Shown here: positions 1 through 19,505 of the stretch, piece by piece
Layout: every line of letters begins with the position of its first letter
Numbering within the stretch: position 1 is the stretch's first letter
Assembly (NCBI GenBank): GCA_964628285.1
Contig: CAZVNP010000005.1
Location: 902 to 64,901 of the forward strand
Reading direction: 5' to 3'
DNA length: 64,000 nucleotides
Source of the DNA: an uncultured Lentimicrobiaceae bacterium
GTDB lineage: Bacteria; Bacteroidota; Bacteroidia; Bacteroidales; JAGONC01
Made by a program: the position numbers and the translations under genes
Notes under the pieces: model-generated
Database searches by the model: none
What the model saw: the letters and a program-made list of their open reading frames with translations, nothing else
Told to the model about the DNA's origin: nothing

Positions 1-2
1 TC

Positions 3-1022
3 GCTGCCGTCACGGGCGACGTCATCATCTGGAAACCCAGTTCAAAGACACCCCTCACGGCAATAGCTATACAGCATATCATCGCGGGCATCCTGGAAAG
101 TAATAAGGTGCCGGAAGGTGTTTTCAACATGATCGTGGCACAATCAAATGTGTTGGGTGACAGCTTTGTGAAAGATAACCGCATGCCCCTGATCTCCGTG
201 ACAGGCTCCACCGTTGTGGGTAAAAAGATCGGCGCCATTGTCGGCAACAGGCTGGGAAGAACGATCATGGAACTGGGAGGCAACAATGCCGTCATCATCT
301 CCGATAAAGCCAACCTTGAAATGGCTATAAAATCAGTCGTCTTTGGGGCCGTGGGCACCTGCGGCCAGAGATGCACAACAACACGCCGCCTTATCATTCA
401 TGAAAGCATATACAATAAGGTTAAAGATCTGCTGATAAAGGCTTATAAGAGCGTTGCTGAAAAGATCGGGGATCCCTTTGAAAAAGATATACTGGTGGGC
501 CCGATGATCGACGGAACCGCTGTCGACGCTTTTCACAAAGCACTGCACGAAGCCGAAAAGGAAGGCGGTAAGATCATTTTCGGCGGGGAGATTTTACAAG
601 GAGAACAATTCCGTAACGGTAACTATGTGGTGCCGGCGCTCGTCGAGGCTGAGAATCATTACTCCGTGGTACAGAGAGAAACCTTTGCACCCATTCTATA
701 CCTGATGAAATACAACAATATTGAAGAAGCCATCAGGTTAAACAACAGTGTTCCTCAAGGATTATCCTCTTCCATATTTACACAGGATCTGACTGAATCC
801 GAAAAATTTCTGTCCGAAGCAGGGTCGGACTGCGGCATTGCCAACGTCAATATCGGGACTTCCGGCGCCGAGATCGGCGGCGCCTTTGGAGGTGAGAAAG
901 ATACCGGCGGAGGCAGGGAAGCAGGTTCCGATGCCTGGAAGACTTATATGAGGCGTCAAACCAATACCATCAATTACGGATCGACACTTCCGCTGGCGCA
1001 GGGGATCAAGTTCGGTTTTTAG
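3..1022 (+). CDS. Aldehyde dehydrogenase, ALDH7/piperideine-6-carboxylate dehydrogenase-like (5' partial)
   Basis: Frame is open to the left edge (WKPSSKTP). Motifs TGST, MELGGNNA, GTCGQRCTT, ETFAP and GAEIGGAFGGEKDTGGGRE are typical of ALDH7. Confidence 0.9.
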   Translation, partial: AAVTGDVIIWKPSSKTPLTAIAIQHIIAGILESNKVPEGVFNMIVAQSNVLGDSFVKDNRMPLISVTGSTVVGKKIGAIVGNRLGRTIMELGGNNAVIISDKANLEMAIKSVVFGAVGTCGQRCTTTRRLIIHESIYNKVKDLLIKAYKSVAEKIGDPFEKDILVGPMIDGTAVDAFHKALHEAEKEGGKIIFGGEILQGEQFRNGNYVVPALVEAENHYSVVQRETFAPILYLMKYNNIEEAIRLNNSVPQGLSSSIFTQDLTESEKFLSEAGSDCGIANVNIGTSGAEIGGAFGGEKDTGGGREAGSDAWKTYMRRQTNTINYGSTLPLAQGIKFGF

Positions 1023-1046
1023 TACCTCACCCTACACCCTCACCCT

Positions 1047-1078
1047 GACTGACGACTGACGACTGACGACTGACGACT
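1047..1078. repeat. Heptamer tandem repeat (GACTGAC)x4.5, preceded by CACCCT-like repeats at 1025-1046
   Basis: Read directly; lies between convergent gene ends. Confidence 0.9.
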
Positions 1079-1079
1079 A

Positions 1080-1844
1080 TCAAATAATCCCGAGCTTCGC
1101 TGCATACTTGATCGCTTCAATGGCGTTATCGGCCTGTAATTTCTCCAGGATGCGCTGACGGTGTGTGTTGACGGTGTTGACGCTGATGTAAAGCTTGTCG
1201 GCTATCTGTTTGCTGATGAGGCCCTTGGAGATAAGCTGCAGAATCTCTTTTTCACGGGCTGTGAGCATGGCCTCTTTACCGGGAGGAGGAAACAGGTACA
1301 CCTTCCCTTCACGGAGATCGATGAGACGGCTGCGAAAAGGAGTATCCGGCGACTGGTCGGGTGAGATGTCCATGATGCCTAAAGCCAGCCATATATTACC
1401 GTGGATATCGTTCTCGAAACACATCTGTTGCTCCAAAATCCTTACATATTCACCTTTACCGTTAAGAATCCTGTATTCGTTGACCAGCTTTCCCTCCTTC
1501 TGGCGTGCAGGTGGAAGAGACATGCCATACCTCAGGAAGTATAATCCTGCTTCATACAATTCAAACAAGTCATCAGGATGTATCCTTTCATCGATATAGG
1601 CTGGGTCACCATGCGATTGTTCAGGATCAAGACTGAATATCTGTGATATGTTCTTTGAGACATAGACATGTTCTCTCCTGAAAAGGTCGAAGACCATGAT
1701 GACGCTGTTGCTCAGCTCACTGATCCTGTCGAGGTTGGGGATATGATGGTCGAGGATGGCATAATCCGGATCCTTTTCGACAAAATGCTGTGAGTCGAGG
1801 AGCCTGTAATGCTCTTTGTGAAGCTGCTCAATCGTTTTTTGCAT
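1080..1844 (-). CDS. PAS-domain LuxR-family transcriptional regulator
   Basis: PAS_3-like RIHPDD segment; C-terminal HTH LTAREKEILQLISKGLISKQIADKLYISVNTVNTHRQRI. Start moved to ATG 1844, downstream of a TAnnTTTG element. Confidence 0.88.
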   Translation of the reverse strand: MQKTIEQLHKEHYRLLDSQHFVEKDPDYAILDHHIPNLDRISELSNSVIMVFDLFRREHVYVSKNISQIFSLDPEQSHGDPAYIDERIHPDDLFELYEAGLYFLRYGMSLPPARQKEGKLVNEYRILNGKGEYVRILEQQMCFENDIHGNIWLALGIMDISPDQSPDTPFRSRLIDLREGKVYLFPPPGKEAMLTAREKEILQLISKGLISKQIADKLYISVNTVNTHRQRILEKLQADNAIEAIKYAAKLGII

Positions 1845-1848
1845 CAGA

Positions 1849-1868
1849 AATACTGATTTATCAGTATT
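1849..1868. promoter_or_regulatory. Inverted repeat AATACTGA-TTTA-TCAGTATT, candidate LuxR/NarL-type operator
   Basis: Perfect 8-bp arms in the divergent intergenic region between the LuxR gene and the TonB receptor fragment. Confidence 0.5.
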
Positions 1869-1897
1869 GTATACCACACCGGATGCACCGACTTTTG

Positions 1898-1905
1898 CAA
1901 AGATA
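1898..1905 (-). promoter_or_regulatory. Bacteroidota -7 promoter element (TATCTTTG) for the LuxR gene
   Basis: Matches TAnnTTTG about 55 nt upstream of ATG 1844. Confidence 0.5.
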
Positions 1906-1916
1906 AAAAATATGCA

Positions 1917-2312
1917 ATGCACCTGAAAATCATTGTCATTGTCATTGTCATTGTCATTGCGCTCACTATACTGTCAGGTGCCGTCATGGGACAGCGGCTC
2001 ACGCAGACGGTGAAGGGCAGGGTCACGGATAAGGAGAGCCAGACCACGCTTCCGGGTGCCAACATCGTCATTCTGGGCACCGATCCATTGCTGGGTAGCG
2101 CCACCGGACCTGACGGCAATTACGTCATCAAAAATGTCCCCGTCGGACGTTACGATATCAGGGTAAGTTTTATGGGCTACCGCGAGGTGATCATCAATGA
2201 GGTGCTGGTCGGCTCAGGTAAAGAGGTTGTTTTAAATGTGGAGATGGAGGAGAAGGCATTGGATGCAGCGGAGGTCATCATCAGGCCGGACAAGGACAAG
2301 GTGGAATTTTAG
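1917..2312 (+). pseudogene. Truncated TonB-dependent receptor (signal peptide plus CarboxypepD_reg-like domain only)
   Basis: QTVKGRVTDKESQTTLPGANIVI...VPVGRY...SFMGY...VGSGKEVVLNVEMEE. Stops at the edge of a repeat cluster; no plug or barrel follows. Confidence 0.75.
1932..1959. repeat. (ATTGTC)x4.7 hexamer repeat encoding IVIVIVIVI in the signal peptide
   Basis: Read directly. Confidence 0.85.
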
Positions 2313-2398
2313 TTGCGGGTTGCAGGTTGCAGGGGTAGCGCCGCGCCGGTGGCGCGGCTTAGCTGCAAACTGCGAACCTGAGTCCGCCGAAGGCAGAC
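2311..2398. repeat. Composite palindromic element: GGTTGCA heptamers, GCCGCGCC/GGCGCGGC hairpin, inverted heptamers, GTCCGCCGAAGGCAGAC hairpin
   Basis: Perfect 8-bp stem at 2340-2358 flanked by oppositely oriented heptamer runs. Confidence 0.7.
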
Positions 2399-2443
2399 GT
2401 CATCCAATAGCGAGAGGATGTTAAGATATTGATTGTTAGTCCT

Positions 2444-2636
2444 GTAGAGACGGCATTTATTTAACCACAGAGGAACACCGAGGTAAACGGAGGTTCGCGG
2501 AGGATGAAAAGATTCATTTTACATTCCTCTGCGTTCTCCGCGGTAAAAAAAGCCTCAATTCTTGCATAATAAAAAAATTAATTTGATATTTGAACCATAA
2601 TATCAGCTATTTAGTGTAAAGCCTCATGCCGTCGCT
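2444..2636. repeat. Nested inverted repeats: outer GTAGAGACGGCAT...ATGCCGTCGCT (REP-like); inner AACCACAGAGGAA...TTCCTCTGCGTTCTCCGCGGT
   Basis: Outer arms at 2444-2456 and 2626-2636; inner element about 2461-2547. Confidence 0.6.
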
Positions 2637-2764
2637 CATCTACCCCATAACTTACAGAACATCTGACTTATACGGCATCTTTCGACAGGAAGCTTAAACT
2701 TAAAACCCAGCGAGGTCGGTTCATTAAAAGAGATCGACAGTTATCCTGAGCAACACTTCAAATC

Positions 2765-4767
2765 ATGAAAAAAATTACCCTCATCATTTCCTGTTTTCTT
2801 ATTTGTATCAATACCTTTTCACAGGTGCGCGACAGATACTTTAGCACGCTTGGCCGGCAGATCTTTAATGATCTTGAGAAGCAGGATTATTATAACGCCA
2901 TAGCCGGGATGGATGTCTTTCTCCGGGTTTACCCGGATGATTCAATCATGTGGTACTTCAGAGGAATGGCCAAATTCATGATGAATGATATTCCAGCAGC
3001 AAGTATCGATCTGATCAAAGCCCAGCAGATGGGCTATCACCAAAACGACAATTTTATTAACATGATTGTATCTAAAGATTACCAGGTAAAAATGCTGGCC
3101 AAAGACTATATCGATGACGTTAATATTCTTAAAACAAAAGATTTCAAACCTGTCTTCAGCCTGAAGGATTCATTGCGTGGAGCCCTTCGACCCGAACGAA
3201 CATGTTATGACGTCTATTACTACAACCTTACCCTCAAAATATTGCCGGAATCAAAGAGCATCGAAGGGCGTAATGAAATTTATTTCACGACAATGCAGAA
3301 CACTATAAGGATACAGGTGGATCTGACCGGTAAACTGCAGATCGACTCGATCACCTGTAAGGGCCGGGAATTAAATTTTACAAGGATCTTTGATGCCGTT
3401 TTCGTTGATTTTGACGACACGCTCCCTGCCGGTAAGGACCTGATATTGGCCGTATCATATTCCGGAACGCCGCGGGAGGCACCCTCCCCTCCGTGGAATG
3501 GTGGTTTCGTATGGAAAAATAATAAAAAACGGCAATGGACAGGGGTGGCATGCGAACATCTGGGCGCCAGTGCGTGGTGGCCCTGTAAGGATTACCTGGG
3601 CGATAAGCCTGATTCGATGTGCATTAATATTCAGGTTCCAACCGGATATCAGGCTATCGCTAACGGAAATCTCCGGTCGTCCCGGGCAGTCGATGATCAA
3701 TATACCAATTTTGAGTGGTTTGTCAGCTACCCTATCAACTCTTACGGCGTCACTTTCTACGTGGGAGATTTTGTCAACTTCAACGAGATGTATACACATG
3801 GTGGCAGTTCATTCCCGATAGATTATTATGTCTTACCCAAACATTTAAAAGCAGCCAGGAAGTACTACCAAAATACAAAGGATGTCATAGCTGTTTATGA
3901 AGATCTGTATGGAGAGTATCCCTATAAGAAAGACGGTGCAGCGATGGTGGAAGCGCCATATGAAGGCATGGAACATCAAAGTGCCATAGCCATTGGTGAC
4001 GTATACAAGAAAAAGAATCGTGAAGACAGGCCAAGCATCAGCGACGGCTTTGACTATTTGCTGGTTCATGAAACGGCGCACGAATGGTGGGGCAATACAG
4101 TGACCATGAGTGACATGGCCGATGCGTGGATCAGTGAAGGCTTTGTAACCTATTCCGAAGCGCTGTTCGCGAAAAGAAAGATGGTTATGGGGAATATCTG
4201 ACAAGATGCGCCGAGGACATGTGGAATATCTTTAATATATGGCCCATGGTTGGCATCAGGGACGTGAACGACAACACTTTTCCGGGAAATGATATCTATC
4301 ATAAAGGAGCGGCAATGCTCAACAATCTGCGGTGCATCATCAATGATGACAGCCTGTTCTTTGCCGTCATCAAAGGATTTTATGACCACTTTAAATTTAA
4401 AACCATTACTACAGCTGATTTTGTGAATTACGTCAACGACAGGACAGGCGCAGACTATAACGACTTTTTCAACAAATTCCTGAACGATACCGATCCACCG
4501 GTACTGAAGTACAGATTCACCCTTGAAAATGACACGCTGCGGTTTTATTATAAATGGGTCGGCGTAGGAGAAAACTTTGCCATGCCTTTCAGCATTACTC
4601 TCAATAATAAAGATAACCACCGCCTTGACGGCACCACGGAATACCAGATCTTTGAAGCGGGTGGCGTCAGGTCATTTTATCTGCCTAATGAAAAGAGATT
4701 CAATAAAGATCAGATCACTAAAAATTCGTTTACCTATTACTGGACATCATGGAGAGAAAGGGATTGA
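2765..4767 (+). pseudogene. Secreted M1-family aminopeptidase with N-terminal TPR-like segment, split by a -1 frameshift near 4170-4182 (ORFs 2765-4201 and 4219-4767)
   Basis: GMEHQ and HETAHEWWGN...WISEG zinc motif in the first ORF; IYHKGAAML in the second. The -1 frame is open across the junction (DGYGEYLTRCAEDMWN). Confidence 0.8.
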
Positions 4768-4777
4768 TGACTAATTA

Positions 4778-4846
4778 ATATCTTCGCTACGCGATTCGAC
4801 GGATATTGTGACATATGGTCCTATCAAATATAGTCGCTACGCGACT
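4778..4846. repeat. Two direct copies of a REP-like hairpin (TCGCTACGCGA core)
   Basis: ATATCTTCGCTACGCGATT and ATATAGTCGCTACGCGACT; the second forms an AGTCGC/GCGACT stem. Confidence 0.6.
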
Positions 4847-4935
4847 TTTATGTACGGTTTGGGACAACCTTCCGGCACTTCGTACAGGCAAATCATAAAA
4901 CTCCATTTATCCTTGGATTTCCAATAAGGATCATT

Positions 4936-4943
4936 TACATTTG
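4936..4943 (+). promoter_or_regulatory. Bacteroidota -7 promoter element (TACATTTG)
   Basis: TAnnTTTG match upstream of the 5010 gene. Confidence 0.45.
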
Positions 4944-5009
4944 TTTGGGATTACGGACAAGTGGTATCGTATTTAAACTTATTAATCTTGTACCCTTTAA
5001 ATGTAAGCC

Positions 5010-5462
5010 ATGGAAACAAATGATGAGATTCGGGATCAGGAAGTGATCCGTGAAAAGGTTGAAATACCGAATGAATTTATTCATCACCTCAATCAAATCA
5101 GCAAATGGACGACTTTCTTCTCAGTCCTGGGATTTATAGCGGTCGGCGTATTACTGATCTTTGCCGCTTTTTCGGGACGGATTTTTTCAGCCATGACGCA
5201 CTATCATGCCAAGGGAGCTGCACTGATAATGAGTCTTGTTTACATTATTATGGCGGTCATCTATTTTTTCCCTGTGGTTTATCTTTACCGGTTTTCAATT
5301 CTTTCGCGGCGTGCCATAAGGGTTAATGATCCGAACGAAATCGTCACCGCCTTTAAGAACCTAAAATGGCACTTCCAATTTGTTGGAATAGTGACTATTA
5401 TTTTTCTGCTGGTCTATCTGCTTGTGGGGATAGGCTTCTCAATTACTGCTTTTCTGAGATAA
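5010..5462 (+). CDS. DUF5362-family membrane protein
   Basis: KWTTFFSVLGFI...IYFFPVVYLYRFS...AFKNLKWHFQFVGI pattern; three hydrophobic segments. Confidence 0.75.
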   Translation: METNDEIRDQEVIREKVEIPNEFIHHLNQISKWTTFFSVLGFIAVGVLLIFAAFSGRIFSAMTHYHAKGAALIMSLVYIIMAVIYFFPVVYLYRFSILSRRAIRVNDPNEIVTAFKNLKWHFQFVGIVTIIFLLVYLLVGIGFSITAFLR

Positions 5463-5492
5463 GTATGACCTGATAAATACGTCGATGGAACC

Positions 5493-7250
5493 ATGAAAAA
5501 AAAACTCTTCCTTTTTCTGGGCATATTGTTCATTATCATTTTCAACGACGGCTGTGAGAAGAAAGAGATCATCAACATTTATGAAAACCCAGCTGCGGGC
5601 ACATTGGTATTTCTGACCGATTTTGATGCGGGTTCAGATGTGGTCATTTCCATGACGGCATCATTAAAAAGCAGGTTTCCCGGCCTGGCTGTCGACTTCA
5701 TCCAAGCCAAACCTTTCAATGTGAAGGAGGCGGCATACCAGTTGGAGGTGGCAGCCATAAACTATCCTGCCGGCACCTTTTTCCTAGGCCTCGTCGATCC
5801 CGGTGCCAATTCGCACTGCATGGTCTTTAAAGCGCAGGATGATAAAAAATTCGTCGTGCCTGATAACGGTTTGGCCACGCTCGTCTTCAAATACATGTTA
5901 ACCGGTGATTATTATGGTGTTGATAATCCGCTTGATGATACCGGTATACCTCCCAGTCAGCTTAATTTCAAAGAATTATACTTGAAAGCTACGATGGGCC
6001 TCATTTCGGGAAAGTCTCTCTCCTCTTTCGGTGATCCCATCGAGCAGCCTGTCACTTTTAATGTGGTCGAGCCGGCTCTCGTCAACGACACCCTTTACGG
6101 TCAGATCACCAATACCGATAATTTTGGCAATTGTATGACTAACATACCCGACTCATTGCTGGATGCCTTCGATACAGGTGTTCTGTTCAAAGTTACAGGA
6201 GGTTCGCAACCTTTCTTCGCTCTTTACGGCATCAATTATTCCTCAGTTCCTCCGGATCAAAATATTGTCTTTTCCAGCCCTTCCAACCTGCTTGAAATAG
6301 CTGTTAATTTAGGTAATGTCTCACAACGTTATCAACTAACGGCCGGAGCCCCCGTCAAACTTCACAGGGGCATGGCACGCATTGGCATCTTGCAATATAA
6401 CGATATCTCAAATTCTTATGTCGACATTGTGAAGAACGAGCTCATAGCTAAGGGATTTGTTGAAGGCGACAATGCCTTATATATCGAAAGAAATGCCGGC
6501 GGAAATATTGCTCAGCTCAGCAGCATGGTCCATGAAATTCTGGAAGAGGGTATCGACATCATGGTCTCCTTCTCCACACCGGCGACACAAGCTGCCGTTT
6601 CCATGGTTCCCGATGACATACCCATAGTATTCAGTATAGTAACCAATCCGGAGATTGCCGGTATCCTGAATCAGCGTACAGGTGTTACGGGCCTCTCCAA
6701 TGCCACGGACTTCAATGCGTTTATCGGCTTCACCAAAAGGCTTTTACCCGCAATTTCCATCGCCGGCAGCCTGTACAATGCAGGGGAATCAAATTCCATC
6801 TTCTCTCAACAGCAACTCAGCAATACCTGCGTTTATTACGGTATGAATTTCTTCAATACTTCCGTGACCGGTGCCGGTGACATCCCTTCCGCCTATGCGG
6901 ATATCAAACAGAATCATATCCAGGCCATCCTGATCAGCAATGATAACACCATGACCCTGGCCATGACTGATCTTGTCGCTCTTGCATTGCCCGATACCAT
7001 ACCGGTGCTTGGCACCGATTATGTCAATACTCAGGATGGCGCTCTTGCCTCCATCAGCGTGGATTATGATCTGATAGCCCGGGAGACCGGCAAGCTCGTT
7101 GTGGCAGTGATCCGCGGCGTGAATCCCGATGATGTGTCAGTAAAATATTTCGATACGAATATCATTGCCATCAATACACAAACGGCCGAGAGTCTGGGAT
7201 ATGTATTCGATCCCGGAATCATCTCAGAAGCCCGCTACATTTACCCCTGA
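5493..7250 (+). CDS. Lipoprotein: DUF62 (SAM hydroxide adenosyltransferase/halogenase-fold) domain fused to an ABC substrate-binding domain (PF04392-like)
   Basis: Signal peptide ending NDG-C. N-half has FLTDF, VDPG, VVPDNGLATL, DNFGNCMTNI and LEIAVNLG. C-half has ERNAGGN, STPATQA, PIVFSIVTNP, VTGLSN, YNAGESNS and DNT. Confidence 0.85.
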   Translation: MKKKLFLFLGILFIIIFNDGCEKKEIINIYENPAAGTLVFLTDFDAGSDVVISMTASLKSRFPGLAVDFIQAKPFNVKEAAYQLEVAAINYPAGTFFLGLVDPGANSHCMVFKAQDDKKFVVPDNGLATLVFKYMLTGDYYGVDNPLDDTGIPPSQLNFKELYLKATMGLISGKSLSSFGDPIEQPVTFNVVEPALVNDTLYGQITNTDNFGNCMTNIPDSLLDAFDTGVLFKVTGGSQPFFALYGINYSSVPPDQNIVFSSPSNLLEIAVNLGNVSQRYQLTAGAPVKLHRGMARIGILQYNDISNSYVDIVKNELIAKGFVEGDNALYIERNAGGNIAQLSSMVHEILEEGIDIMVSFSTPATQAAVSMVPDDIPIVFSIVTNPEIAGILNQRTGVTGLSNATDFNAFIGFTKRLLPAISIAGSLYNAGESNSIFSQQQLSNTCVYYGMNFFNTSVTGAGDIPSAYADIKQNHIQAILISNDNTMTLAMTDLVALALPDTIPVLGTDYVNTQDGALASISVDYDLIARETGKLVVAVIRGVNPDDVSVKYFDTNIIAINTQTAESLGYVFDPGIISEARYIYP

Positions 7251-7261
7251 TTTCCATTGAT

Positions 7262-7612
7262 ATGTCAGGCTTCAACGGCAGGATGAAACAAACAATCACA
7301 CTGACCGGAAATGAAGCTAAGGACATGCTGCCTGCCATCCATTCCTATAGCATATCCATGCGTTATCAGCTTAAGAACACGTCGGCAAAGGTCTTTGAGA
7401 TTATCCTTCCCACCGTCAACACCGGGCTTGAAAGGGGCACCAGGGCCAGAAGAGAGGTCATATACCGGGGATTAGCAACTGAGGAAGTAGCTGTTGAAAC
7501 CATGAAAGCCCTGGAGTGCGACAAGTTTGAACACGCCATCGGTCAGGCTAAAAATCTGCTTGAAGCGGCTGAAAGCAATCCGGAACAATTTTTTAACCAA
7601 ATGAACCACTGA
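7262..7612 (+). CDS. Hypothetical protein
   Basis: 116-aa ORF starting 11 nt after the fusion gene, same strand; no recognised motif. Confidence 0.5.
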   Translation: MSGFNGRMKQTITLTGNEAKDMLPAIHSYSISMRYQLKNTSAKVFEIILPTVNTGLERGTRARREVIYRGLATEEVAVETMKALECDKFEHAIGQAKNLLEAAESNPEQFFNQMNH

Positions 7613-7867
7613 ATGATTGGGAGGTATCATGCTGCTGATGAAAACTGTAAAATCTAAGATAAGGTTGACATCACAAAAAATTTCGTTACAGTCATTTTAT
7701 AGGATAATTTTTCATCCTTTGTCTTTCACCTTTATTTTTCATGACCAAACTATTTATTCTATAGTTTGTTATCATCATAATGACGGCGCATCCCGATTTA
7801 ATACAAGCCGCTCATTCCGATATAAATGGGAATAGAGTTTTTAATCAAAACAATGGAGATCTTTGCA

Positions 7868-8290
7868 ATGAAAAACACGAACCGTTTACCTATTGGTTTA
7901 TTAGTTCTTTTTATTGGATTCAGTTTTTTCTTCCTTCAGGGCTGTATGGTCAGTCAATACCATGTGCCGCCGGTCACCGTGGCTCAAATCGTCGAAATGA
8001 GCAAATCCGGTGTAGCGCCCAAGGATATCATCGACAAGATCAAGAAATCGCACACCGTTTACCGTCTTAAAGCCGATCAGCTTGTCCAGCTGGAGAAGGA
8101 GGGTGTTTCGACAGAAGTGCTTGATTACATGCAGAAAACATATATCGATTCGGTACGTCAAAACCAGCAGCTGGAGGATTGGAATTACTGGTGGCCGGGA
8201 TGGGACGGTTACTGGTACGGAGGTCCGGCCTTCGGGTGGCCCTGGGGTTACTGGCGCTGGCACTGGGGCGCCGGTATCGGTTTCGATTAA
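7868..8290 (+). CDS. Hypothetical lipoprotein with small helical domain and Trp/Gly-rich C-terminus
   Basis: Lipobox FLQG-C; QIVEMSKSGV...LEKEGVSTEVLDYM helical repeat; tail WNYWWPGWDGYWYGG. Confidence 0.75.
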   Translation: MKNTNRLPIGLLVLFIGFSFFFLQGCMVSQYHVPPVTVAQIVEMSKSGVAPKDIIDKIKKSHTVYRLKADQLVQLEKEGVSTEVLDYMQKTYIDSVRQNQQLEDWNYWWPGWDGYWYGGPAFGWPWGYWRWHWGAGIGFD

Positions 8291-8356
8291 ATATCATCAT
8301 TTCTCCTCAATTTAAATCGTTTTTCATATTCAACTTCCTTAACTGTAGAGGACATT

Positions 8357-8974
8357 ATGATGTTTTTTGACGCAAAAGCCCGGGAGTGGGATAACGATCC
8401 TCAAAAGATCGACAGGGCCAAAGTCTTTGCCAATGAGATACTGTCATTTGTCAAGCCATTGCGATCCATAAACGGTTTTGAATATGGTTGCGGCACCGGC
8501 TTGCTAAGCTATTTCATGAAAGATCATTTTGCCCGGCTAACCCTCGCCGATAATTCCGATGGTATGCTCAATGTACTGCGTAAAAAAATAAAAAAAGAAC
8601 ATATCCCCAACATGACCCCCATCCACCTGGACCTGATGACACAAAATTTCAGACAACATTCTTATGATGTGATATACACCCTGATGACACTCCATCACAT
8701 CAGGGATATCGGAAAATTATTGAAACAGTTTTTTTCGATGTTGAAAAAAGGTGGTTACCTGTGTATTGGAGACCTGACGAAAGAGGACGGCTCCTTTCAT
8801 TCCCATATACCGGATTATGACGGCCACAATGGCTTTGACAGGGAAGAGATTGAAAGGATCATGGAAAGCAGTGGATTCAAAACAGAATTGTACAAGATCT
8901 GTTATCGGATCACAAAACAATCGGAAGGAAAGGTGACCACCTATCCTTTATTTCTGATGATAGGGAAAAAATAA
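8357..8974 (+). CDS. Class I SAM-dependent methyltransferase
   Basis: FDAKAREWD, EYGCGTG, DNSDGML, MTLHHI, EDGSFH and HNGF motifs. Confidence 0.9.
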   Translation: MMFFDAKAREWDNDPQKIDRAKVFANEILSFVKPLRSINGFEYGCGTGLLSYFMKDHFARLTLADNSDGMLNVLRKKIKKEHIPNMTPIHLDLMTQNFRQHSYDVIYTLMTLHHIRDIGKLLKQFFSMLKKGGYLCIGDLTKEDGSFHSHIPDYDGHNGFDREEIERIMESSGFKTELYKICYRITKQSEGKVTTYPLFLMIGKK

Positions 8975-8983
8975 TCTGGAAAA

Positions 8984-9337
8984 TCAACCGACGATAAGCC
9001 ATTCTTTCAGGACGACGGCCTGGTTATGTTCAGTATCCTTCGACGAGTAAAGTAATATGAGAGGTTGATGTTGTGCGATGTGACGAAGTCTTCCGACAAT
9101 GTTTTCATGCGAGGCCAGTTCCTGCCTGTATTTGATCCTGAACTCTTCCCAACGTGCGGGATCATGTGCGAACCATTTCCTCAATGCAGTGGTTGGTGCG
9201 ATCTCGTGGCACCACTCATCCAGGCGCAGGGATTCTTTTGAGATTCCCCGTGGCCACACCCTATCGACCAGGAGGCGGTAACCCTCGCCGGAATAAGTAA
9301 GATCATACACCCTTCTGATCGTGATGTTCATACCCAT
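8984..9337 (-). CDS. DUF488 / YeaO-family protein
   Basis: RRVYD, RLLVDRVWPRGISK, APTTALRKWFAHDP, HNQAVVL. Confidence 0.9.
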   Translation of the reverse strand: MGMNITIRRVYDLTYSGEGYRLLVDRVWPRGISKESLRLDEWCHEIAPTTALRKWFAHDPARWEEFRIKYRQELASHENIVGRLRHIAQHQPLILLYSSKDTEHNQAVVLKEWLIVG

Positions 9338-9420
9338 TTTAAAAAACCCAATAAAGGTTTTATCCTTTAAGATAAAAACATTTCTTGACCCGTTTTGATT
9401 GTCGACAGGTTACCCTTTGA

Positions 9421-9567
9421 TCAGAACCATTCTTCAGTACCATCCTCCAGCAATATACCGCCTCTTTCAAAGTACAGGTCAAGAGCCAGTTGATAGTCAT
9501 CGGCTTCTTTCTTCGGCGAAATCTTCCTTTTTCTTGAACCAACGGTTTTCTTTACATTTTCATCCAT
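9421..9567 (-). CDS. Candidate 48-aa small protein (not in ORF track)
   Basis: Hand translation: MDENVKKTVGSRKRKISPKKEADDYQLALDLYFERGGILLEDGTEEWF*. Co-oriented between the DUF2582 and DUF488 genes. Confidence 0.5.
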   Translation of the reverse strand: MDENVKKTVGSRKRKISPKKEADDYQLALDLYFERGGILLEDGTEEWF

Positions 9568-9611
9568 GATTGTTCATTTTAAGTGTTAATATATGATGAA
9601 AGAAGGATCTA

Positions 9612-9824
9612 TCAGGTATTCACAGGAAAAACATACATACTCTCGTCAATTTCTATCAGCTTGATCTTATCTTCACGGGCAAGCCATCCCAGTGCCATGT
9701 AAAAATCATCTTTTTTAATCCGGCACTCTTTTATTAACATCGGGACCTTGGTGTCGGTGAGATCTGCCTCCAGCCTCCGCCAAATGATTCCGGCATTTGT
9801 CCCAATCTGATCCTTTTTTTTCAT
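9612..9824 (-). CDS. DUF2582-family winged-helix protein
   Basis: IGTNAGIIW...YMALGWLAREDKI signature. Confidence 0.85.
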   Translation of the reverse strand: MKKKDQIGTNAGIIWRRLEADLTDTKVPMLIKECRIKKDDFYMALGWLAREDKIKLIEIDESMYVFPVNT

Positions 9825-9971
9825 GTGTCATTCATATTATCAGTTATATTAAACAAATTCCTGAAGCATCTGTCTATTACATTAGCTTTTCTGCTGAGAA
9901 TTAATACATTAAACTACAAATCATCATACCCTAAAGACCCCATAAAAGTACAGGCGTCTCTTTGGATCGGC

Positions 9972-10010
9972 ATTAAGAACGGATTAAGAAAAAATTAAGA
10001 TCTCATTAAA
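9972..10010. promoter_or_regulatory. Four ATTAAGA-like direct repeats at 11-bp period, candidate OmpR-family binding site
   Basis: ATTAAGA at 9972, 9983 and 9994; ATTAAA at 10005. Confidence 0.5.
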
Positions 10011-10026
10011 AATACCGTGCGAACAT

Positions 10027-10704
10027 CTACCTTTTATCGGTCATAATGTACCCGACGCCGGTAACGGTATGAATAAGCCTGGGAGAAAAGTCCTTGTCCA
10101 GTTTTTTCCTTAATGAATTGATGTGAACATCGATAACATTGGTGCCGGGATAAAATTGAAAGTTCCAGATTTTCTCAGCTATTTCGGCTCTGTCGAGAAC
10201 CCTTCCCTGATTTCTCAATAACAACTCAAGAATATGATATTCACGTGACGTAAGTATTATCTCTTTATCAGCCCTGGTTACTTTTTTTGCCAGGGTATCC
10301 ATTTCCAGGTCGGCAAGCCGCAGTAACGGATGAATGATCATATCTTTGCTCCTGCGGTTCAACGCCTCGACACGGGCCAGCAGCTCCCTGAACTCAAAGG
10401 GCTTGGCAAGATAATCGTCGGCGCCACTGTCAAATCCTTCCACCTTGTCGTCGATCGAACCGAGTGAAGTCAAGATAATAACCGGGGTTTTTATCCCGGC
10501 CGCCCTGATCTTCCTGCATAGCTCCATTCCATTTATTCCGGGCAGCACCACATCGAGGACGATCAGATCATATTTTCTGCTCGTCGCCAGTTTTTCCCCG
10601 GTCACTCCGTCATAAGCCTGATCGACAACGTGCTTTTTATCTTCCAGTCCATATTTTATGGAAGTTGACAGCTTTTCATCATCATCAACCAATAAAATTT
10701 TCAT
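10027..10704 (-). CDS. OmpR/PhoB-family response regulator (CusR/CzcR-like)
   Basis: LLVDDD, LDVVLP, GADDYLAKPF, LTSREY, TNVIDVHINSLRKK, IHTVTGVGY. Confidence 0.93.
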   Translation of the reverse strand: MKILLVDDDEKLSTSIKYGLEDKKHVVDQAYDGVTGEKLATSRKYDLIVLDVVLPGINGMELCRKIRAAGIKTPVIILTSLGSIDDKVEGFDSGADDYLAKPFEFRELLARVEALNRRSKDMIIHPLLRLADLEMDTLAKKVTRADKEIILTSREYHILELLLRNQGRVLDRAEIAEKIWNFQFYPGTNVIDVHINSLRKKLDKDFSPRLIHTVTGVGYIMTDKR

Positions 10705-10996
10705 CGGACCGCGATTTGAAAATAACGGCCATTGCCATCATCTGACAAAAATATATAACATCCGTATCTTTTCTATTCCACGCATGACTTTTTTTACTTC
10801 AAATAATTATAATTTTACACGGCAAGGTTCTTATTTTATAAATTGTCATAGAATTTATCCACTTGACGGTAATCGAACATTTTTTTGTAAATTCACCCTG
10901 TCGATATAATCGGTAACCGGTCACGTGGTAAACCCGGCTATCAATACGCCGCGACCAGGTAGTCGTACATTGTTTCGCAACTTAACGGTTCACACG

Positions 10997-13900
10997 ATGA
11001 GAATGCCCGGGAAAAAAGATATTATACAATTGCTGATCATCATGATCCTGATACCTTTGGTGGTGACGGTCATCACCCTCATCGTGGTTTATCACCTGAC
11101 ACTCAGAGGTAAAATGGATTTGCTGAAAGATATTTCATCGGACCAGACCGAGCTGATCACAACAGCCTTTCAGGCGACAAAAGATACTACTGCCGTTTTG
11201 AAGACAATAAAAAAGCAGGAAGATATAACCAATGGCTTGGATGAGACGGGCGAGTTCATTCTTGCTTACCGTAAAAAGGATTCAATATACTTTATTTTAG
11301 AACAACGGAATGAATATTTCATTCAGCCCAAGCCCATTTCAATTGATTCAAAAACCGCTGAACCCATCAAATATGCTCTCCAGAAACACAGTGGATTTAT
11401 CAGGGGTAGGGACTATAAGAACAAAAGGGTCCTCGCTTATTATAATCACATCCCTGGTCTGGAATGGGGCATGGTTGTAAAAACGGATCTGGCGAAATTA
11501 CAAAGGCCTTTTTATCATGCAGCCTTTTATGCCGTCATATCTTCACTCTTACTGGTATTGATTGGGATATATATTTTCAGGCGGGTCTCGGTGCCCATCG
11601 TAAAAAAAATCATTGAAAGCAATGAGCGTTACAGGAACTTATTCGAGCATTCCGTCATTCCCATCTGGGAGGTCGATCTCTCATTAATAAAAAAACATCT
11701 CAACATATTAAGGGAATCAGGCATCAGCGATCTTAAAGCTCACTTGGAACAAAATCAGGATGCTTTAAATTACCTGATCTCATTGGTTAAAGTGATTGAT
11801 ATCAATCAGAAAAGCGTATCATTTTTTAAAGCCGGGGGTAAAGAAGATCTGTTGACGAACACGCAATTTTATTTCAGTGAGGATTATAAGGAAGTGTTCA
11901 GGGAAATGGTGATTCGTCTGGCGGGAGGTGCAACTCATTTTGAAGGTGAAATTGAGGCCAGGACCGTGGAGGGCAAGCGTGTACTTTCAATACACCTTGA
12001 CGTGGCACCGGGGTATGAAAACAGTCTCGGTAAAATCCTGGTTTCATTTGTCGATTTCACCGACCGAAAGCGCATGGAGGAAGCTTTGAAGGAAAGCGAA
12101 AAGCAGCTCCGCCGCCAGGCTGAACTTTTGGAATATGCTCCTGTGCTGGTACGTGATTTACAAGATCAGATCATCATGTGGGACAAGGGCATGGAAGAAC
12201 TGTACGGTTACCGCCATGATGAGGCTTTGGGAATGATATCACATGACCTCCTGAAGACTGTGTTCCCTCTTTCTCGTGCTGCCACCGCCGAGGCTTTGAA
12301 CCGTGGCGGCTATTGGTTCGGTGAGTTACGGCATTACCGCAACGATGGCCGGCAGGTATGGGTCAACAGCTTACAGATCCTTCACCGGAACCGGCAAGGT
12401 AAGCCTGATGCCATCATCGAAATCAATAACGACATCACGTTGTTAAAAAAAAGAGAAGCAGAACTCCATAAGCTGAACCGCACCCTCAAGGCTTTGGGCA
12501 ACAGCAGGCAAGCCATGTTACATGCCACGGATGAAGTGCCCTACCTCCAGGAGATATGCCGCATTATCCAGGAGGATTGTGGCCATGCCATGATATGGAT
12601 AGGCTATGCCATGAACGATGACACCAAGTCGGTCATCCCCGTAACCTATGCCGGTTTTGAGAAAGGTTATCTGGAGACACTTCACATCACCTGGCACGAT
12701 ACGGAACGTGGCCGCGGTCCCACAGGCACTGCCATCAGAACCGGAGAGCCTGCCGGCTGCAACAACATGCTGACCGATCCTAATTTCAAGCCCTGGCGCA
12801 ACGAAGCCCTCAAGCGCGGTTATGCCTCTTCCATCGTTCTCCCGCTGAAAGATGACAAACGTACCTTCGGTGCCATCTCAATCTATGCCAGGGAACCGGA
12901 AGCTTTCTCCGATGAGGAAGTGGCATTACTCTCACAGTTGGCTGTCGATGTCTCCTACGGCATTATGAACATCCGCCTGCGTCTTAAAAACATCGAAACG
13001 GAAGAGGCCATACGCCAAAGTGAAGAAAAGTACCGCCTGCTGTTCAATACCATGACCGATGGCTTCGCCCTTCATGAGATCATCCTTGACGATAAGAATA
13101 ATCCGGTTGACTATCGGTTCCTCAGCATCAATCCCTCTTTTGAAGCGATGACCGGCAGGAGTGCGAATGATTTGGTCGGAAAAACCGTCAGGGAAGTGTT
13201 TCCCGATATCGAGCCCCATTGGATCAACACTTACGGAACGGTTGCCATGACAGGGAAAAGAATGGTATTTGAACATTATTACCCTTCTTTAGACAAGTAT
13301 TTCAATCTCAGAGTTTTCTCGCCTAAAATGGGTTATTTTGCAGTGATATATGATGACATAACGTTTTATAAAAAAGCCGAACAGGCCATTGCCGCCAGCG
13401 AACAAAAACTGAAAACATATGCTGATGAACTCAAAAATCTACTGGCCACAAAAGATAAATTTTTCAGCATCCTCGCACATGACCTTCGAAATCCCTTCAG
13501 CAGCCTGTTTATCGCTTCCGAACTCCTTTATGAGAATGTACCTGAATATGACACCGAAAGAACCAGGGAATTCATTAAAATCTTCAACGACGCAGCCAAA
13601 CATGGTCACGACATCCTTGAAAACCTGCTTGAATGGTCACGGTCACAAACAGGGTCCATCAGCGTCAATCCTGAGTCATTGAATATCAGTGAACTTATCA
13701 GAAGCAACCTGTCAGTGCTGCAAGCGGCAGCTATCAGCAAACAGATCTCCATATCTGCCGAGGTTCCGGACGATATCCGGATAAACTCCGACAAGCATAT
13801 GCTGGATACCATCCTGAGAAATCTGTTAAGCAATGCCATTAAATTTACACTTAGAGGCGGCTATGTCTCTGTCCATGCAATACCAAGCGACGACCATCTC

Positions 13901-14125
13901 CTAGTGACCATTAAAGACACGGGCACAGGGATATCAGAAGAAGATCTGAGCAAACTTTTCAGAATAGACATTAAATTTAGTAATGTCGGTACCGAGGGTG
14001 AAAAAGGGACCGGCATGGGATTGATTTTATGCAGGGAATTTGTCGGAAAGCTCGGGGGCAAGATATGGGTTGAAAGTGTTGTCAATCAGGGAAGTGAATT
14101 CAAATTCACCATTCCGATGCAGTGA
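10997..14125 (+). CDS. Sensor histidine kinase (TM-Cache-like-TM-PAS-PAS-GAF-PAS-HisKA-HATPase)
   Basis: H-box AHDLRNPF, NLLSNAIKFT, DTGTG, GTGMGL; GAF segment GRGPTGTAIRTG. Start uncertain (10925, 10997 or 11003). Confidence 0.92.
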   Translation: MRMPGKKDIIQLLIIMILIPLVVTVITLIVVYHLTLRGKMDLLKDISSDQTELITTAFQATKDTTAVLKTIKKQEDITNGLDETGEFILAYRKKDSIYFILEQRNEYFIQPKPISIDSKTAEPIKYALQKHSGFIRGRDYKNKRVLAYYNHIPGLEWGMVVKTDLAKLQRPFYHAAFYAVISSLLLVLIGIYIFRRVSVPIVKKIIESNERYRNLFEHSVIPIWEVDLSLIKKHLNILRESGISDLKAHLEQNQDALNYLISLVKVIDINQKSVSFFKAGGKEDLLTNTQFYFSEDYKEVFREMVIRLAGGATHFEGEIEARTVEGKRVLSIHLDVAPGYENSLGKILVSFVDFTDRKRMEEALKESEKQLRRQAELLEYAPVLVRDLQDQIIMWDKGMEELYGYRHDEALGMISHDLLKTVFPLSRAATAEALNRGGYWFGELRHYRNDGRQVWVNSLQILHRNRQGKPDAIIEINNDITLLKKREAELHKLNRTLKALGNSRQAMLHATDEVPYLQEICRIIQEDCGHAMIWIGYAMNDDTKSVIPVTYAGFEKGYLETLHITWHDTERGRGPTGTAIRTGEPAGCNNMLTDPNFKPWRNEALKRGYASSIVLPLKDDKRTFGAISIYAREPEAFSDEEVALLSQLAVDVSYGIMNIRLRLKNIETEEAIRQSEEKYRLLFNTMTDGFALHEIILDDKNNPVDYRFLSINPSFEAMTGRSANDLVGKTVREVFPDIEPHWINTYGTVAMTGKRMVFEHYYPSLDKYFNLRVFSPKMGYFAVIYDDITFYKKAEQAIAASEQKLKTYADELKNLLATKDKFFSILAHDLRNPFSSLFIASELLYENVPEYDTERTREFIKIFNDAAKHGHDILENLLEWSRSQTGSISVNPESLNISELIRSNLSVLQAAAISKQISISAEVPDDIRINSDKHMLDTILRNLLSNAIKFTLRGGYVSVHAIPSDDHLLVTIKDTGTGISEEDLSKLFRIDIKFSNVGTEGEKGTGMGLILCREFVGKLGGKIWVESVVNQGSEFKFTIPMQ

Positions 14126-14295
14126 CATCCCTGTAATATGGAAAAAGAAGCCAATTATCTTTTCGATCATTTTGACGATATTTGAATCGTAATCTTTAAT
14201 TTTACGGCCAATTTTTTTCATTTTTCAATAAACCGGCTTTCCGGACGATGAATATTTTACATGCATAACCATCAGGGAACAATTAATCATAATAT

Positions 14296-15087
14296 ATGTC
14301 ACTCACGGCATTAATTACCGGAGGTTCCTCCGGACTGGGATATTCTATCGCCACACTCCTGGCACAACGGGGTTACAACATCATCATTCTGGCCAGGGAC
14401 TCTCAACGCATCGATGCAGCCTGCCAGCGGTTATCCGTTCACCCGGTTTCACGGCGGGGCATCACATGTGATATCACGCGGGAAGAAGACCTTCGTGCAG
14501 CTGCAAAAATCGTGGAACAGGAATTTGGAACAATTGACTTCCTGGTGCTCAATGCCGGTGAAGTCACCGTCAGATTACTTGGCGAATACGGTACTGTTGC
14601 CGATCTTAAAAAAGATATGGAAGTTGATTTATGGGGAACCATCCAGTCCGCCTGGTTCTTTGTTCCTTTTCTTGCAAAGGGCGCGAAGGTGCTGATGATC
14701 TCATCGGGTTTCGGATTGATGGGAGCGGCGGGGTATTCCGTGTATTGCGCTGCCAAGGCAGGAGTCATTAACTTCGGTGAAGCTTTGCGTCGTGAGCTTT
14801 TACACCGCCACATACAGGTTTATGTCGCCTGTCCCGGCGATATGGATACGCCGCAGTTTCATGGTGAGATAGCCAGCCAGCCGGACTGGATGAAGGCCAA
14901 AAATTCACCGCGCCGGGTCATGTCACCGGAAAAGACCGCACAAAAGATACTGGGCAGATGCACCGGCAGTTCCAAATTTCTGATCATCACGGGCGCGGAT
15001 GTCAGGTTGCTGGCCTTCGCCACCAAGCTCCTGCCGCGACGATGGCGCGACAAATTGATCGACGGCATGCTGCCTTTACCTGGATAA
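14296..15087 (+). CDS. SDR oxidoreductase, 3-ketodihydrosphingosine reductase (KDSR)-like
   Basis: ITGGSSGLG, NAG, GYSVYCAAK (YxxxK), EALRRE and CPGDMDTPQF resembling the KDSR PPDTDTP motif. SDR call is firm; KDSR subtype is inferred. Confidence 0.75.
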   Translation: MSLTALITGGSSGLGYSIATLLAQRGYNIIILARDSQRIDAACQRLSVHPVSRRGITCDITREEDLRAAAKIVEQEFGTIDFLVLNAGEVTVRLLGEYGTVADLKKDMEVDLWGTIQSAWFFVPFLAKGAKVLMISSGFGLMGAAGYSVYCAAKAGVINFGEALRRELLHRHIQVYVACPGDMDTPQFHGEIASQPDWMKAKNSPRRVMSPEKTAQKILGRCTGSSKFLIITGADVRLLAFATKLLPRRWRDKLIDGMLPLPG

Positions 15088-15151
15088 TGAGAGTATCAGT
15101 TTAAAAGAAAAGGTTTATTACATTAGTTGGATAATTACCAATAAAATAAAC

Positions 15152-16450: not shown

Positions 16451-16625
16451 CCGTCAGACCGCATCACGTCATTGTGGTCCATCAATAATCCTGACATTTT
16501 CCACCTGATACCTTTCAAAGGGTATCGGGTATCATCATCCCTCCATAACAAAACATCCGTTAACAAAACAGGTAAAAGATTGTTTATAAGCCGGTATTGT
16601 TATAGTTGAATTATAAAAAATAATC

Positions 16626-17804: not shown

Positions 17805-17862
17805 CATCACTGCCGCTGATAAATCATGAAAAAGGATCGAACGATAGTTTTTCATAACGACA

Positions 17863-18336
17863 ATGGAAACACCTCCGACGGAACCGGTATTATTTCTTCT
17901 TCTTGAGAACATACTGTTTTACATGCTGAACAATAACCTCAGCAAGTCGCTTTCATTGACCCTTTCAATACCTATTTTAAACGGAAGGCAGGCAGCCGAT
18001 AATGTCAAACTGGGCGAATTGAACCTGCGCAATGCCAGGTTGAACGAAGAACAGGGTAAGGTCACCCTGCGCAAGGAGGTGGAACAGGCCTATTATGATC
18101 TTAAAAATGCGATATCCAATTACGAAGCGTCACAGGGACAACTGGATGCGGCTGCCGCTTCATATGACGATTCCAAGACATGTTACGATGCAGGCATGAT
18201 GAATGCCCCCGACCTGCTGGTTCAGAAGAACGCCCTTATAAAAGCACAGTCCGGCTTACTTCAGGCTAAGTATGACCTTATTTTTAAGTCTAAGATCCTC
18301 GACTACTATATGGGCATTAAAATAACTTTACAATAG
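17863..18336 (+). pseudogene. TolC-family outer membrane efflux protein, C-terminal fragment only
   Basis: SLTLSIPILNG...VEQAYY...QAKYDLIFKSKILDYYMG; only about 135 TolC-like residues, with no intact N-terminal repeat. Confidence 0.75.
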
Positions 18337-18345
18337 CGTGAAAAG

Positions 18346-19500: not shown

Positions 19501-19505
19501 CAGAC

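Follow-up and report, generated by a model that had tools for sequence, protein, structure and literature searches.

A single gene on the + strand (positions 5493 to 7250) of a 64,000-nucleotide stretch of DNA from an uncultured Lentimicrobiaceae bacterium (contig CAZVNP010000005.1, positions 902 to 64,901; the whole stretch is called the window) encodes a protein of 585 amino acids (aa) in which an export signal, a complete DUF62 domain and a PF04392 solute-binding domain are joined in one frame. DUF62 is the fold of S-adenosylmethionine (SAM) hydrolases and SAM-dependent halogenases. The catalytic His of the hydrolases is absent from this protein and from all 57 other members of its exported clade that were compared, and the motifs that contact the substrate are kept. 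We tentatively read the fusion protein as a trimeric, non-hydrolytic lipoprotein with two pockets for ligand capture, a reading to which we give rather less than an even chance.

Profile searches against Pfam were carried out on the translated open reading frame (ORF). Residues 39-179 matched SAM_HAT_N (PF01887; E 5.7e-15, 55.8 bits against a cut-off of 26.3), residues 203-288 matched SAM_HAT_C (PF20257; E 9.5e-16, 58.3 bits against 25.5), and residues 312-573 matched ABC_sub_bind (PF04392; E 3.2e-35, 122.2 bits against 25.9). All three matches are far beyond chance. By the gathering cut-offs of PF01887 and PF20257 the protein belongs to the DUF62 superfamily; it belongs to PF04392 by its score and by its likeness to the solved members 3lkv, 3lft and 6hni. 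The original prediction, made from the letters alone, had described one 585-aa frame with a two-part DUF62 domain and a PF04392-type domain. The profile search bears this out, and the motif strings then quoted (NDG-C, FLTDF, VDPG, VVPDNGLATL, DNFGN, LEIAVN, DPGANSHC and QLNFKE) are all present in the translation. The narrower NCBIfam families were not reached: the (R)-SAM hydrolase equivalog NF058624 scored 75.5 bits against a cut-off of 350, NF053629 scored 45.7 against 470, and the TrpX tryptophan-binding equivalog NF041285 scored 139.6 against 390. An AlphaFold2 model of the fusion protein, with 33 sequences in the alignment, had a pLDDT of 91.1 and a pTM of 0.83 and was confident across the domain junction. 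The features of the gene, all on the + strand, are as follows.

5493 to 5555: putative signal peptide (residues 1-20) and lipobox Cys21 (codon 5553-5555); MKKK, a hydrophobic run, NDG-C.
5556 to 5606: predicted flexible tether after the lipid anchor (residues 22-38); pLDDT below 50 at residues 19-33.
5607 to 6029: DUF62 N-terminal domain, SAM_HAT_N (residues 39-179); from Pfam and from alignments to 2zbu, 2wr8 and 1wu8.
Sites within the DUF62 N-terminal domain: D43 (5619-5621), D102, C109 (5817-5819), P123-D-N125 and N158 (5964-5966).
6099 to 6356: DUF62 C-terminal beta domain, SAM_HAT_C (residues 203-288); from Pfam, with D209-N-F-G-N213 and L267-E-I-A-V-N272.
6372 to 7247: PF04392 solute-binding domain, fold at about residues 294-585, directly after the last DUF62 strand; from Pfam and matches to solved structures, pLDDT mostly above 90.
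7248 to 7250: stop codon.

Relatives with both domains were sought, as the original prediction had proposed. In a word-indexed search of 5.8 billion proteins, DUF62 and PF04392 annotations occurred together in 35 clusters. The window's own protein accounts for one cluster and N-terminally truncated fragments for two; the remaining 32 are full-length relatives of 578-598 aa with 34-55% identity to the window protein, which were aligned with it. A scan of one genome per species located a full-length copy at 19 loci, one of which has two tandem copies; these loci were retrieved with the pattern [NS]FGNCxTNI, so that the conservation of that stretch, especially of C214, is partly by construction. 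The tandem genes (locus L012, 7934-9673 and 9969-11702; 579 and 577 aa) come from a single metagenome-assembled genome. Record titles of the 19 loci name Lentimicrobiaceae, Prolixibacteraceae, Bacteroidales, candidate division KSB1, Kapaibacterium and Chlorobiota; several third-party annotation (TPA) records are titled Hyphomicrobiales or Chromatiales, labels that are taken with reserve. A sample of 151 genomes from the order of this bacterium contained the full-length fusion in the window's own genome and nowhere else; the DUF62-only form turned up in one further genome. The fusion gene is rare and patchy. A word search for short proteins returned 10 proteins, and the genome scan and the full HMMER scan described below were far more informative. 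The best score in an ESM Atlas search, 0.82, was to DUF62 clusters and lay below the level of a lead.

That the gene is an assembly chimera or a decaying pseudogene can be excluded for practical purposes. Its frame is intact, 32 other full-length proteins come from independent assemblies, and the model is confident across the junction. In all four public runs (4 studies; freshwater and sediment metagenomes), one or more of which may be the source of this DNA, contigs cover positions 5000-7700 in one piece with 2-4 single-letter differences, no insertion or deletion and no joint; a chimeric join near 6370, which the original prediction had considered, is contradicted by these contigs. None of them varies at the Cys109 codon. 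No RNA dataset was listed among the runs that carry this DNA. Nothing supports decay of the gene directly; an M1 peptidase gene close by is broken into two frames, so some decay or error does occur nearby.

The N-terminus starts with MKKK and runs through a hydrophobic stretch, modelled by AlphaFold2 as a helix at residues 3-18, to N-D-G-C. Cys21 is invariant in 33/33 aligned fusion proteins. When 60 rows were scanned (33 fusions, 25 DUF62-only proteins and 2 Chloroflexota-type lipoproteins), a hydrophobic run followed by Cys was seen in 58, the ORF starts of the two other rows being unresolved. The marks of a bacterial lipoprotein are present: positive charges at the N-terminus, then a hydrophobic helix, then a lipobox whose Cys does not vary. 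The N-D-G-C lipobox is atypical at positions -3 and -2. The lipoprotein-type signal read earlier from the letters is thus upheld by the N-terminal sequence, the modelled helix and the invariance of Cys21, and the fusion protein probably faces the periplasm or the cell surface. K, D and E are abundant at positions +2 to +4 after the Cys across the family. The surface-export signal of Bacteroidetes is given in the accessible text of PMC5080379 as K-(D/E)2 or Q-A-(D/E)2 after the Cys; by comparison, the window protein has C-E-K-K-E at this point, an exact K-D-E occurs in four relatives, and most others are acidic-rich at +2 to +4.

The DUF62 half aligns with 2zbu over the whole domain (E 7.8e-24); PH0463, a soil chlorinase, SalL and the fluorinase match more weakly. 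In the alignment to PH0463 (1wu8, 2wr8), D102 falls on Asp68, C109 on Arg75 and N158 on His127, while the alignment to 2zbu is offset by one residue in the loop of the His127 position. The Asp68-Arg75-His127 triad is described as water-activating in the accessible text of PMC4859513. The PH0463 alignment agrees with the earlier observation that the Asp is kept, that DPGVGxxR has become DPGANSHC and that TFHGRD has become QLNFKE. Columns of the alignment were then compared between 58 members of the exported clade (33 fusions and 25 DUF62-only proteins) and 18 DUF62 proteins without a signal.

Asp68 position: exported, E in 45, D in 12, K in 1; no signal, D in 17.
Arg75 position: exported, R in 44, K in 10, L in 2, C in 1 (the window protein), S in 1; no signal, R in 17/18.
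His127 position: exported, no His (P, S, N, T or A); no signal, H in 17/18.
Next residue, the halide site (S158 of the fluorinase FDAS, G131 of SalL, numbered as in the accessible text of PMC4859513): exported, mostly F, Y, I or V; no signal, G in 16/18.
Arg of GRD: exported, E, D or Q; no signal, R in 18/18.
Asp of GRD: exported, an acidic residue retained; no signal, D in 17/18.

In the exported and the signal-less proteins alike (58 and 18), residues D43, P123-D-N125, D209-x-F-G-N213, Y249 and L-E-x-A-x-N show little or no variation. The accessible text of PMC4859513 lists PxNGL, IDxxFGN and residues D16 and N215 of FDAS as conserved active-site features, and the window protein carries these substrate-contact motifs as D43, P123-D-N125-G-L and D209-N-F-G-N213. 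Of the triad it retains D102, with C109 in place of Arg75 and N158 in place of His127. For the halide site the same text gives the pairs T80-S158 in FDAS and Y70-G131 in SalL; the residue at the S158/G131 position is F159. Judged from these alignments, the DUF62 pocket is retained and its catalytic set degraded, and the fusion protein is not a SAM hydrolase by the family-defining triad, nor is it a halogenase.

The original prediction described the catalytic triad of this protein as altered. Across the exported clade just one of the changes is general: the His is lost in 58/58, the Arg position is kept as R or K in 54/58, and Cys109 belongs to the window protein alone. Nor is an altered triad unique to the exported copy, because the genome's own cytoplasmic DUF62 protein (contig C21; locus L086, 1144-1935, - strand, 263 aa; 145 bits on SAM_HAT_N) also lacks the DPG..R and His motifs, having ISSEAS where relatives have DPGVG..R and TFPTRD where relatives have TFHGRD. 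The fusion protein shares both Pfam domains and the pocket motifs with the DUF62/(R)-SAM hydrolases (PH0463, 1wu8/2wr8; 2zbu; StDUF62; SaciSAMH). It differs from the characterised hydrolases in that it is apparently exported and lipid-anchored, lacks the triad His, has Cys at the Arg75 position and carries a binding domain. With the halogenases FlA/FDAS (1rqp) and SalL (2q6i) it has the fold family and the adenosyl-binding motifs in common, at a weak match (E 8e-6); F159 stands at the halide-site position as that text assigns it, where the clade mostly has F, Y, I or V. No biosynthetic cluster was found around the gene in the window or at the loci examined.

Three copies of residues 34-293 were modelled together with the alignment. 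The predicted trimer reached an ipSAE of 0.85 against 0.41 for the best control, a mark that was reached by 20/30 proteins solved as pairs and by 1/23 solved as single chains; the runs had at least 93% of their contacts in common, and the pLDDT of the partner was 88 or higher. The predicted interface includes residues 44-50, 158-161, 206-211 and 261-265, and therefore the former catalytic loop of one chain would meet the FGN loop of the next. In solved members of the DUF62 family the active site lies between protomers, according to the accessible text of PMC4859513 and PMC12120602, and the predicted trimer likewise has its pocket loops at the interface. The prediction may reflect likeness to the solved DUF62/fluorinase trimers and is not proof of a trimer.

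The binding half matches three solved structures over its full length: 3lkv (E 6.5e-29), 3lft (E 8.5e-24) and 6hni (E 1.7e-19). Its columns were compared between the 33 fusions and 43 canonical free PF04392 proteins. The fusions keep the family-conserved residues T362-P363, T384-(D/N)-P386, T399-G400-x-S402, E432-x-N434-S435, D484-N485-T486, G516, D524-Y525 and N561, which probably include ligand-contact residues. R395, F413, F553 and T532 are invariant in the 33 fusions, unlike in the canonical set. The solved relatives bind Tyr (CD0873, 6hni), Phe (VC_1101, 3lkv) and Trp (SP1069/TrpX, 3lft); from the accessible text of PMC6816091, they have a common hold on the amino and acid groups of the ligand, and two residues set the side-chain preference. 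By an inferred numbering offset, D509 would correspond to Glu-263 of CD0873 and Y525 to Tyr-262 of VC_1101. The PF04392 domain thus probably still binds an amino acid or a compound of that type, and closes on it. Besides the full-length match to all three solved proteins, the window protein has in common with CD0873 that it is a lipoprotein. It departs from canonical PF04392 proteins in its place C-terminal to another domain, in having no adjoining permease or ATPase, and in the clade-specific R395, F413, F553 and T532. The lytic transglycosylase MltF is an exported enzyme with a solute-binding-type accessory domain. It offers a parallel in that a periplasmic binding fold is fused to an exported domain; the families and the domain order differ, and the likeness is one of analogy.

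In a tree of 78 DUF62 domains, 58 exported proteins lie on one side of a long branch (SH-aLRT support 100, length 0.67), with a pair of Chloroflexota-type lipoprotein DUF62 proteins as sister (support 98). The deepest lineages of the exported clade are fusions, and DUF62-only lipoproteins are nested among them; the starred branches of the tree force at least two changes of architecture. The direction of change appears to be loss of the binding domain, because of the rooting and because the binding halves of the fusions resemble each other more than they resemble free PF04392 proteins. The nesting of DUF62-only lipoproteins among the fusions suggests that the DUF62 part works on its own.

For a wider set, residues 22-294 were used as the query of a full HMMER scan against 1.84 billion representatives. 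It gave 3883 hits at E of 0.001 or below and 21 at 1e-30 or below; 15 of the latter are 577-592 aa long, five are 287-303 aa and one is a fragment. From the best 150 hits of at least 240 aa, together with three fusion proteins and the window's own, 146 representatives were examined. By a crude heuristic, 67 of these carry a hydrophobic N-terminal extension, although five of the extensions are at least 80 aa long and may be mis-called. The His is kept in 25/67 of the exported-looking proteins against 70/79 without an extension, a difference to be read as a pattern and not as a statistical test, since the rows are mutually related; the same number, 25/67, keep the full D-R-H and GRD set. It had been stated earlier that DUF62 proteins are cytoplasmic and stand-alone. 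This is true of the characterised ones, but by the heuristic many representatives look exported, and other fusions exist. In a FastTree analysis the 21 rows of the exported clade (support 100) lie inside a clade of 31 rows without any His (support 99), which also includes lipoprotein DUF62 proteins with a PF22309 sensor-type domain (P0185, P0220). P0185, P0220 and P0154 have a signal peptide, DUF62 and a C-terminal extracytoplasmic domain, as in the window fusion, and differ in what that C-terminal domain is; P0154 (signal, DUF62 and N_BRCA1_IG) keeps the full triad, unlike the window fusion. No characterised example of exported DUF62 fusions of the P0185, P0220 or P0154 type was found in the literature search. 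Further DUF62 architectures, seen among P0150, P0215, P0186 and P0274, were signal plus DUF62 plus a weak Emfourin match, CutA1 plus DUF62, and DUF62 plus radical SAM plus Wyosine_form.

No permease or ATPase was found within positions 1-20000 of the window, and neither lies beside the fusion gene at any of the 19 fusion loci. The genome to which the window belongs (3.35 Mb, 99.8% complete) has one PF04392-type ABC (ATP-binding cassette) system: its only PF02653 permease lies on contig C24 with an ATPase and a triple PF04392 protein. The earlier statement that no cognate permease or ATPase is nearby is therefore right for the neighbourhood, but a possible cognate pair exists elsewhere in the genome. 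A PF02653 permease is present in 4/5 other carrier genomes, and none was found in one complete 4.1-Mb chromosome with the fusion. By gene context the fusion protein is not a canonical ABC binding protein. Auxotrophy of the host for SAM was considered and rejected, as metK is present in the genome.

The proposed mode of action is as follows. A lipid-anchored extracytoplasmic protein would trimerise through its DUF62 domain, so that each trimer would carry three amino-acid-binding domains. The DUF62 pocket at the subunit interface, which in relatives holds the adenosyl part of SAM, would stay in place; the water-activating His is gone, and the small residue at the nucleophile site has given way to an aromatic or aliphatic one. 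The DUF62 domain would then bind an adenosyl-type ligand (SAM, S-adenosylhomocysteine (SAH), methylthioadenosine, adenosine or a related 5'-substituted nucleoside) without hydrolysing SAM, and the PF04392 domain would close around an amino acid or something similar. The outcome would be a capture or sensing lipoprotein with two pockets in the periplasm or on the cell surface, encoded by a single gene with no dedicated partner beside it. Binding appears more probable than hydrolysis because the pocket is kept, the His is lost and the residue at the nucleophile site is bulky. The original suggestion of a repurposed extracytoplasmic module that binds SAM or adenosine thus survives as the most likely reading, with corrections as to the triad, the breadth of export and the ABC system.

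Several observations weigh against this two-pocket, non-hydrolytic reading. The pocket residues were assigned from sequence motifs and from the accessible text of PMC4859513, and the contrast in His retention between exported-looking and other DUF62 proteins is drawn among related rows. The Asp68 position is D or E in 57/58 of the exported clade, the Arg75 position is R or K in 54/58 and the Asp position of GRD is acidic; as these residues persist, a different catalytic base is possible. The genome's cytoplasmic DUF62 protein has no His either, and therefore loss of the His alone is no proof of lost activity. Finally, the PF02653 permease in the window's genome and in 4/5 other carriers means that delivery to an ABC importer is possible.

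A rival explanation is that the protein still acts as an enzyme outside the cytoplasm, but with altered chemistry: without a His, it would displace the group at C5' of an adenosyl substrate such as environmental SAM or another 5'-substituted adenosine. Glu or Asp at 102, Arg or Lys at 109 (in most members) or the acidic pair 160-161, also found in most members, would take the place of the His; the attached binding domain would either take up the amino-acid product or have a regulatory role. All substrate-contact motifs are kept, extracytoplasmic DUF62 catalysis probably exists given the exported-looking proteins with the full D-R-H and GRD set, and a Peripla_BP_6 plus Peptidase_C13 fusion at one DUF62 locus shows a binding domain on an exported enzyme in some carriers. 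An enzyme of this kind has to be reconciled, however, with the absence of His in 58/58, with the change from Gly or Ser to a bulky residue at the nucleophile site, with Cys for Arg in the window protein (no variant codon in the 4 runs) and with relaxation of the Arg75 position, where L, C and S occur in the clade and V, M and N among the representatives. We regard it as a doubtful but serious possibility.

The protein could instead be mainly an orphan solute-binding protein for the importer of contig C24, with DUF62 as no more than a trimerising or anchoring scaffold. The intact binding domain, the single permease, ATPase and triple PF04392 protein of C24 and the permease of most other carriers agree with this. 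But a mere scaffold would have no need of the pocket motifs, which are invariant or nearly so; the binding domain seems to have been lost at least twice, if the direction is read correctly, while the exported DUF62 stayed; identity to the C24 binding domains is 24-28%; the gene is never beside a permease in the loci examined; and the complete carrier chromosome has no PF02653 match. These considerations make the orphan binding protein improbable. A signalling co-receptor is somewhat less probable still. Once loaded with ligand, the lipoprotein would, like some other binding proteins, dock on a sensor in the membrane, either a histidine kinase or a regulator of the 7TM type: the sister lipoproteins P0185 and P0220 are fused to the PF22309 sensor-type domain and sensors lie near some loci (an AraC-type regulator and a PDZ-7TM protein in L018, hybrid kinases in L005 and L009, a kinase at window positions 10925-14125), whereas no sensor is conserved next to the gene, kinases are common and their adjacency is not above chance.

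A broader proposal is put forward as speculative and rather unlikely. The His-less exported clade of 31 representatives would be a new class of extracytoplasmic receptors or enzymes for adenosyl compounds. As trimers anchored by lipid, its members would recognise 5'-substituted adenosines from the environment, among them SAM, SAH, methylthioadenosine, 5'-deoxyadenosine and perhaps adenosylcobalamin, and would split the ligand at C5' independently of His or hold it for uptake. The amino-acid-type moiety that is set free, or that comes with the ligand, would be caught by the fused domain, which is PF04392 here and PF22309 in the sister group. If true, this would be an undescribed extracytoplasmic route by which SAM-derived metabolites are scavenged. 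What DUF62 proteins do physiologically is debated, and at least some have been suggested to have another function, according to the accessible text of PMC12120602. A coherent exported DUF62 branch that has dropped the catalytic His, appears to have kept the substrate pocket and shows at least two fusions to extracytoplasmic ligand-binding domains points to a role for the fold outside cytoplasmic SAM repair, and its soluble two-domain proteins are targets for binding and activity tests. Both folds are already known, and the fusion is already in databases under automatic names. Relatives are named "SAM-dependent chlorinase/fluorinase" by NCBI, among other names; neither this nor "ABC transport system substrate-binding protein" fits. 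The literature search found no paper on an exported DUF62 protein, a DUF62-PF04392 fusion or the His-less exported clade, in keeping with the earlier remark that the architecture was not a recognised one. A candidate match for DUF62 and lipoprotein in that search proved to be DUF6242.

Immediate neighbours of the fusion gene are a gene for a DUF5362-like membrane protein (5010-5462, +), 30 nucleotides upstream, and a 116-aa ORF without a Pfam match (7262-7612, +), 11 nucleotides downstream; the three may be co-transcribed. Neither neighbour was found beside relatives, and across 45 loci no neighbour is conserved family-wide. A simple scan picked up a terminator-like hairpin ahead of the 5010 ORF, at 4832-4846; downstream of 7250 and of 7612 it found none. 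TAnnTTTG, which we take to be a promoter motif, occurs at 4936-4943, upstream of the 5010 ORF; as a promoter signal it is unsupported, with 37 occurrences in the window against 41 expected and hence no enrichment. Further upstream, an M1-family peptidase is split over two frames (2765-4201 and 4219-4767, +), which cover positions 4-108 and 156-218 of the Peptidase_M1 profile; either a frameshift or an assembly error accounts for the split, or the gene is a pseudogene. Other exported peptidase genes near the fusion gene are M1 in L011, M13 in L012 and S8 in L002. An association with exported peptidases is unproven, such genes being common in these genomes.

The operon on contig C24 (L085, 3729-14539) encodes a Y_Y_Y hybrid kinase, a response regulator with a SpoIIE phosphatase, the 958-aa triple-PF04392 protein, a 414-aa STAS-domain protein, the PF02653 permease and the ABC ATPase. 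Its make-up resembles that of a binding-protein/ABC unit with a link to partner-switching signalling.

Binding proteins of other families accompany the exported DUF62 genes at several loci. In Draconibacterium (L018, 11-12988) a DUF62-only gene lies beside the Peripla_BP_6 plus Peptidase_C13 fusion, a Bmp/PnrA-like lipoprotein and a 477-aa double SBP_bac_3 lipoprotein; the cluster also holds the AraC-type regulator, which has a hydrophobic N-terminal region, the PDZ plus 7TM protein and four to five paralogous family-less lipoproteins. Most L018 gene clusters are common to both L019 and L020. In two Prolixibacteraceae/Bacteroidales loci (L003, 5277-11814; L010, 2221-11899) a double SBP_bac_3 lipoprotein gene adjoins the fusion gene, with type IX-secreted proteins nearby.

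At six loci from Bacteroidales or Bacteroidota (L022, 6633-8822; L025; L026; L027; L032; L046) an Amt ammonium-transporter gene lies directly upstream of a DUF62-only gene on the same strand, and no PII gene was seen between the two. Both being trimers, a physical link between Amt and DUF62 is conceivable. At the KSB1 locus (L004, 280-4969) the fusion gene is directly preceded, on its own strand, by a gene for a TonB-dependent-receptor-like outer-membrane protein of 808 aa, the sole case among the 19 fusion loci.

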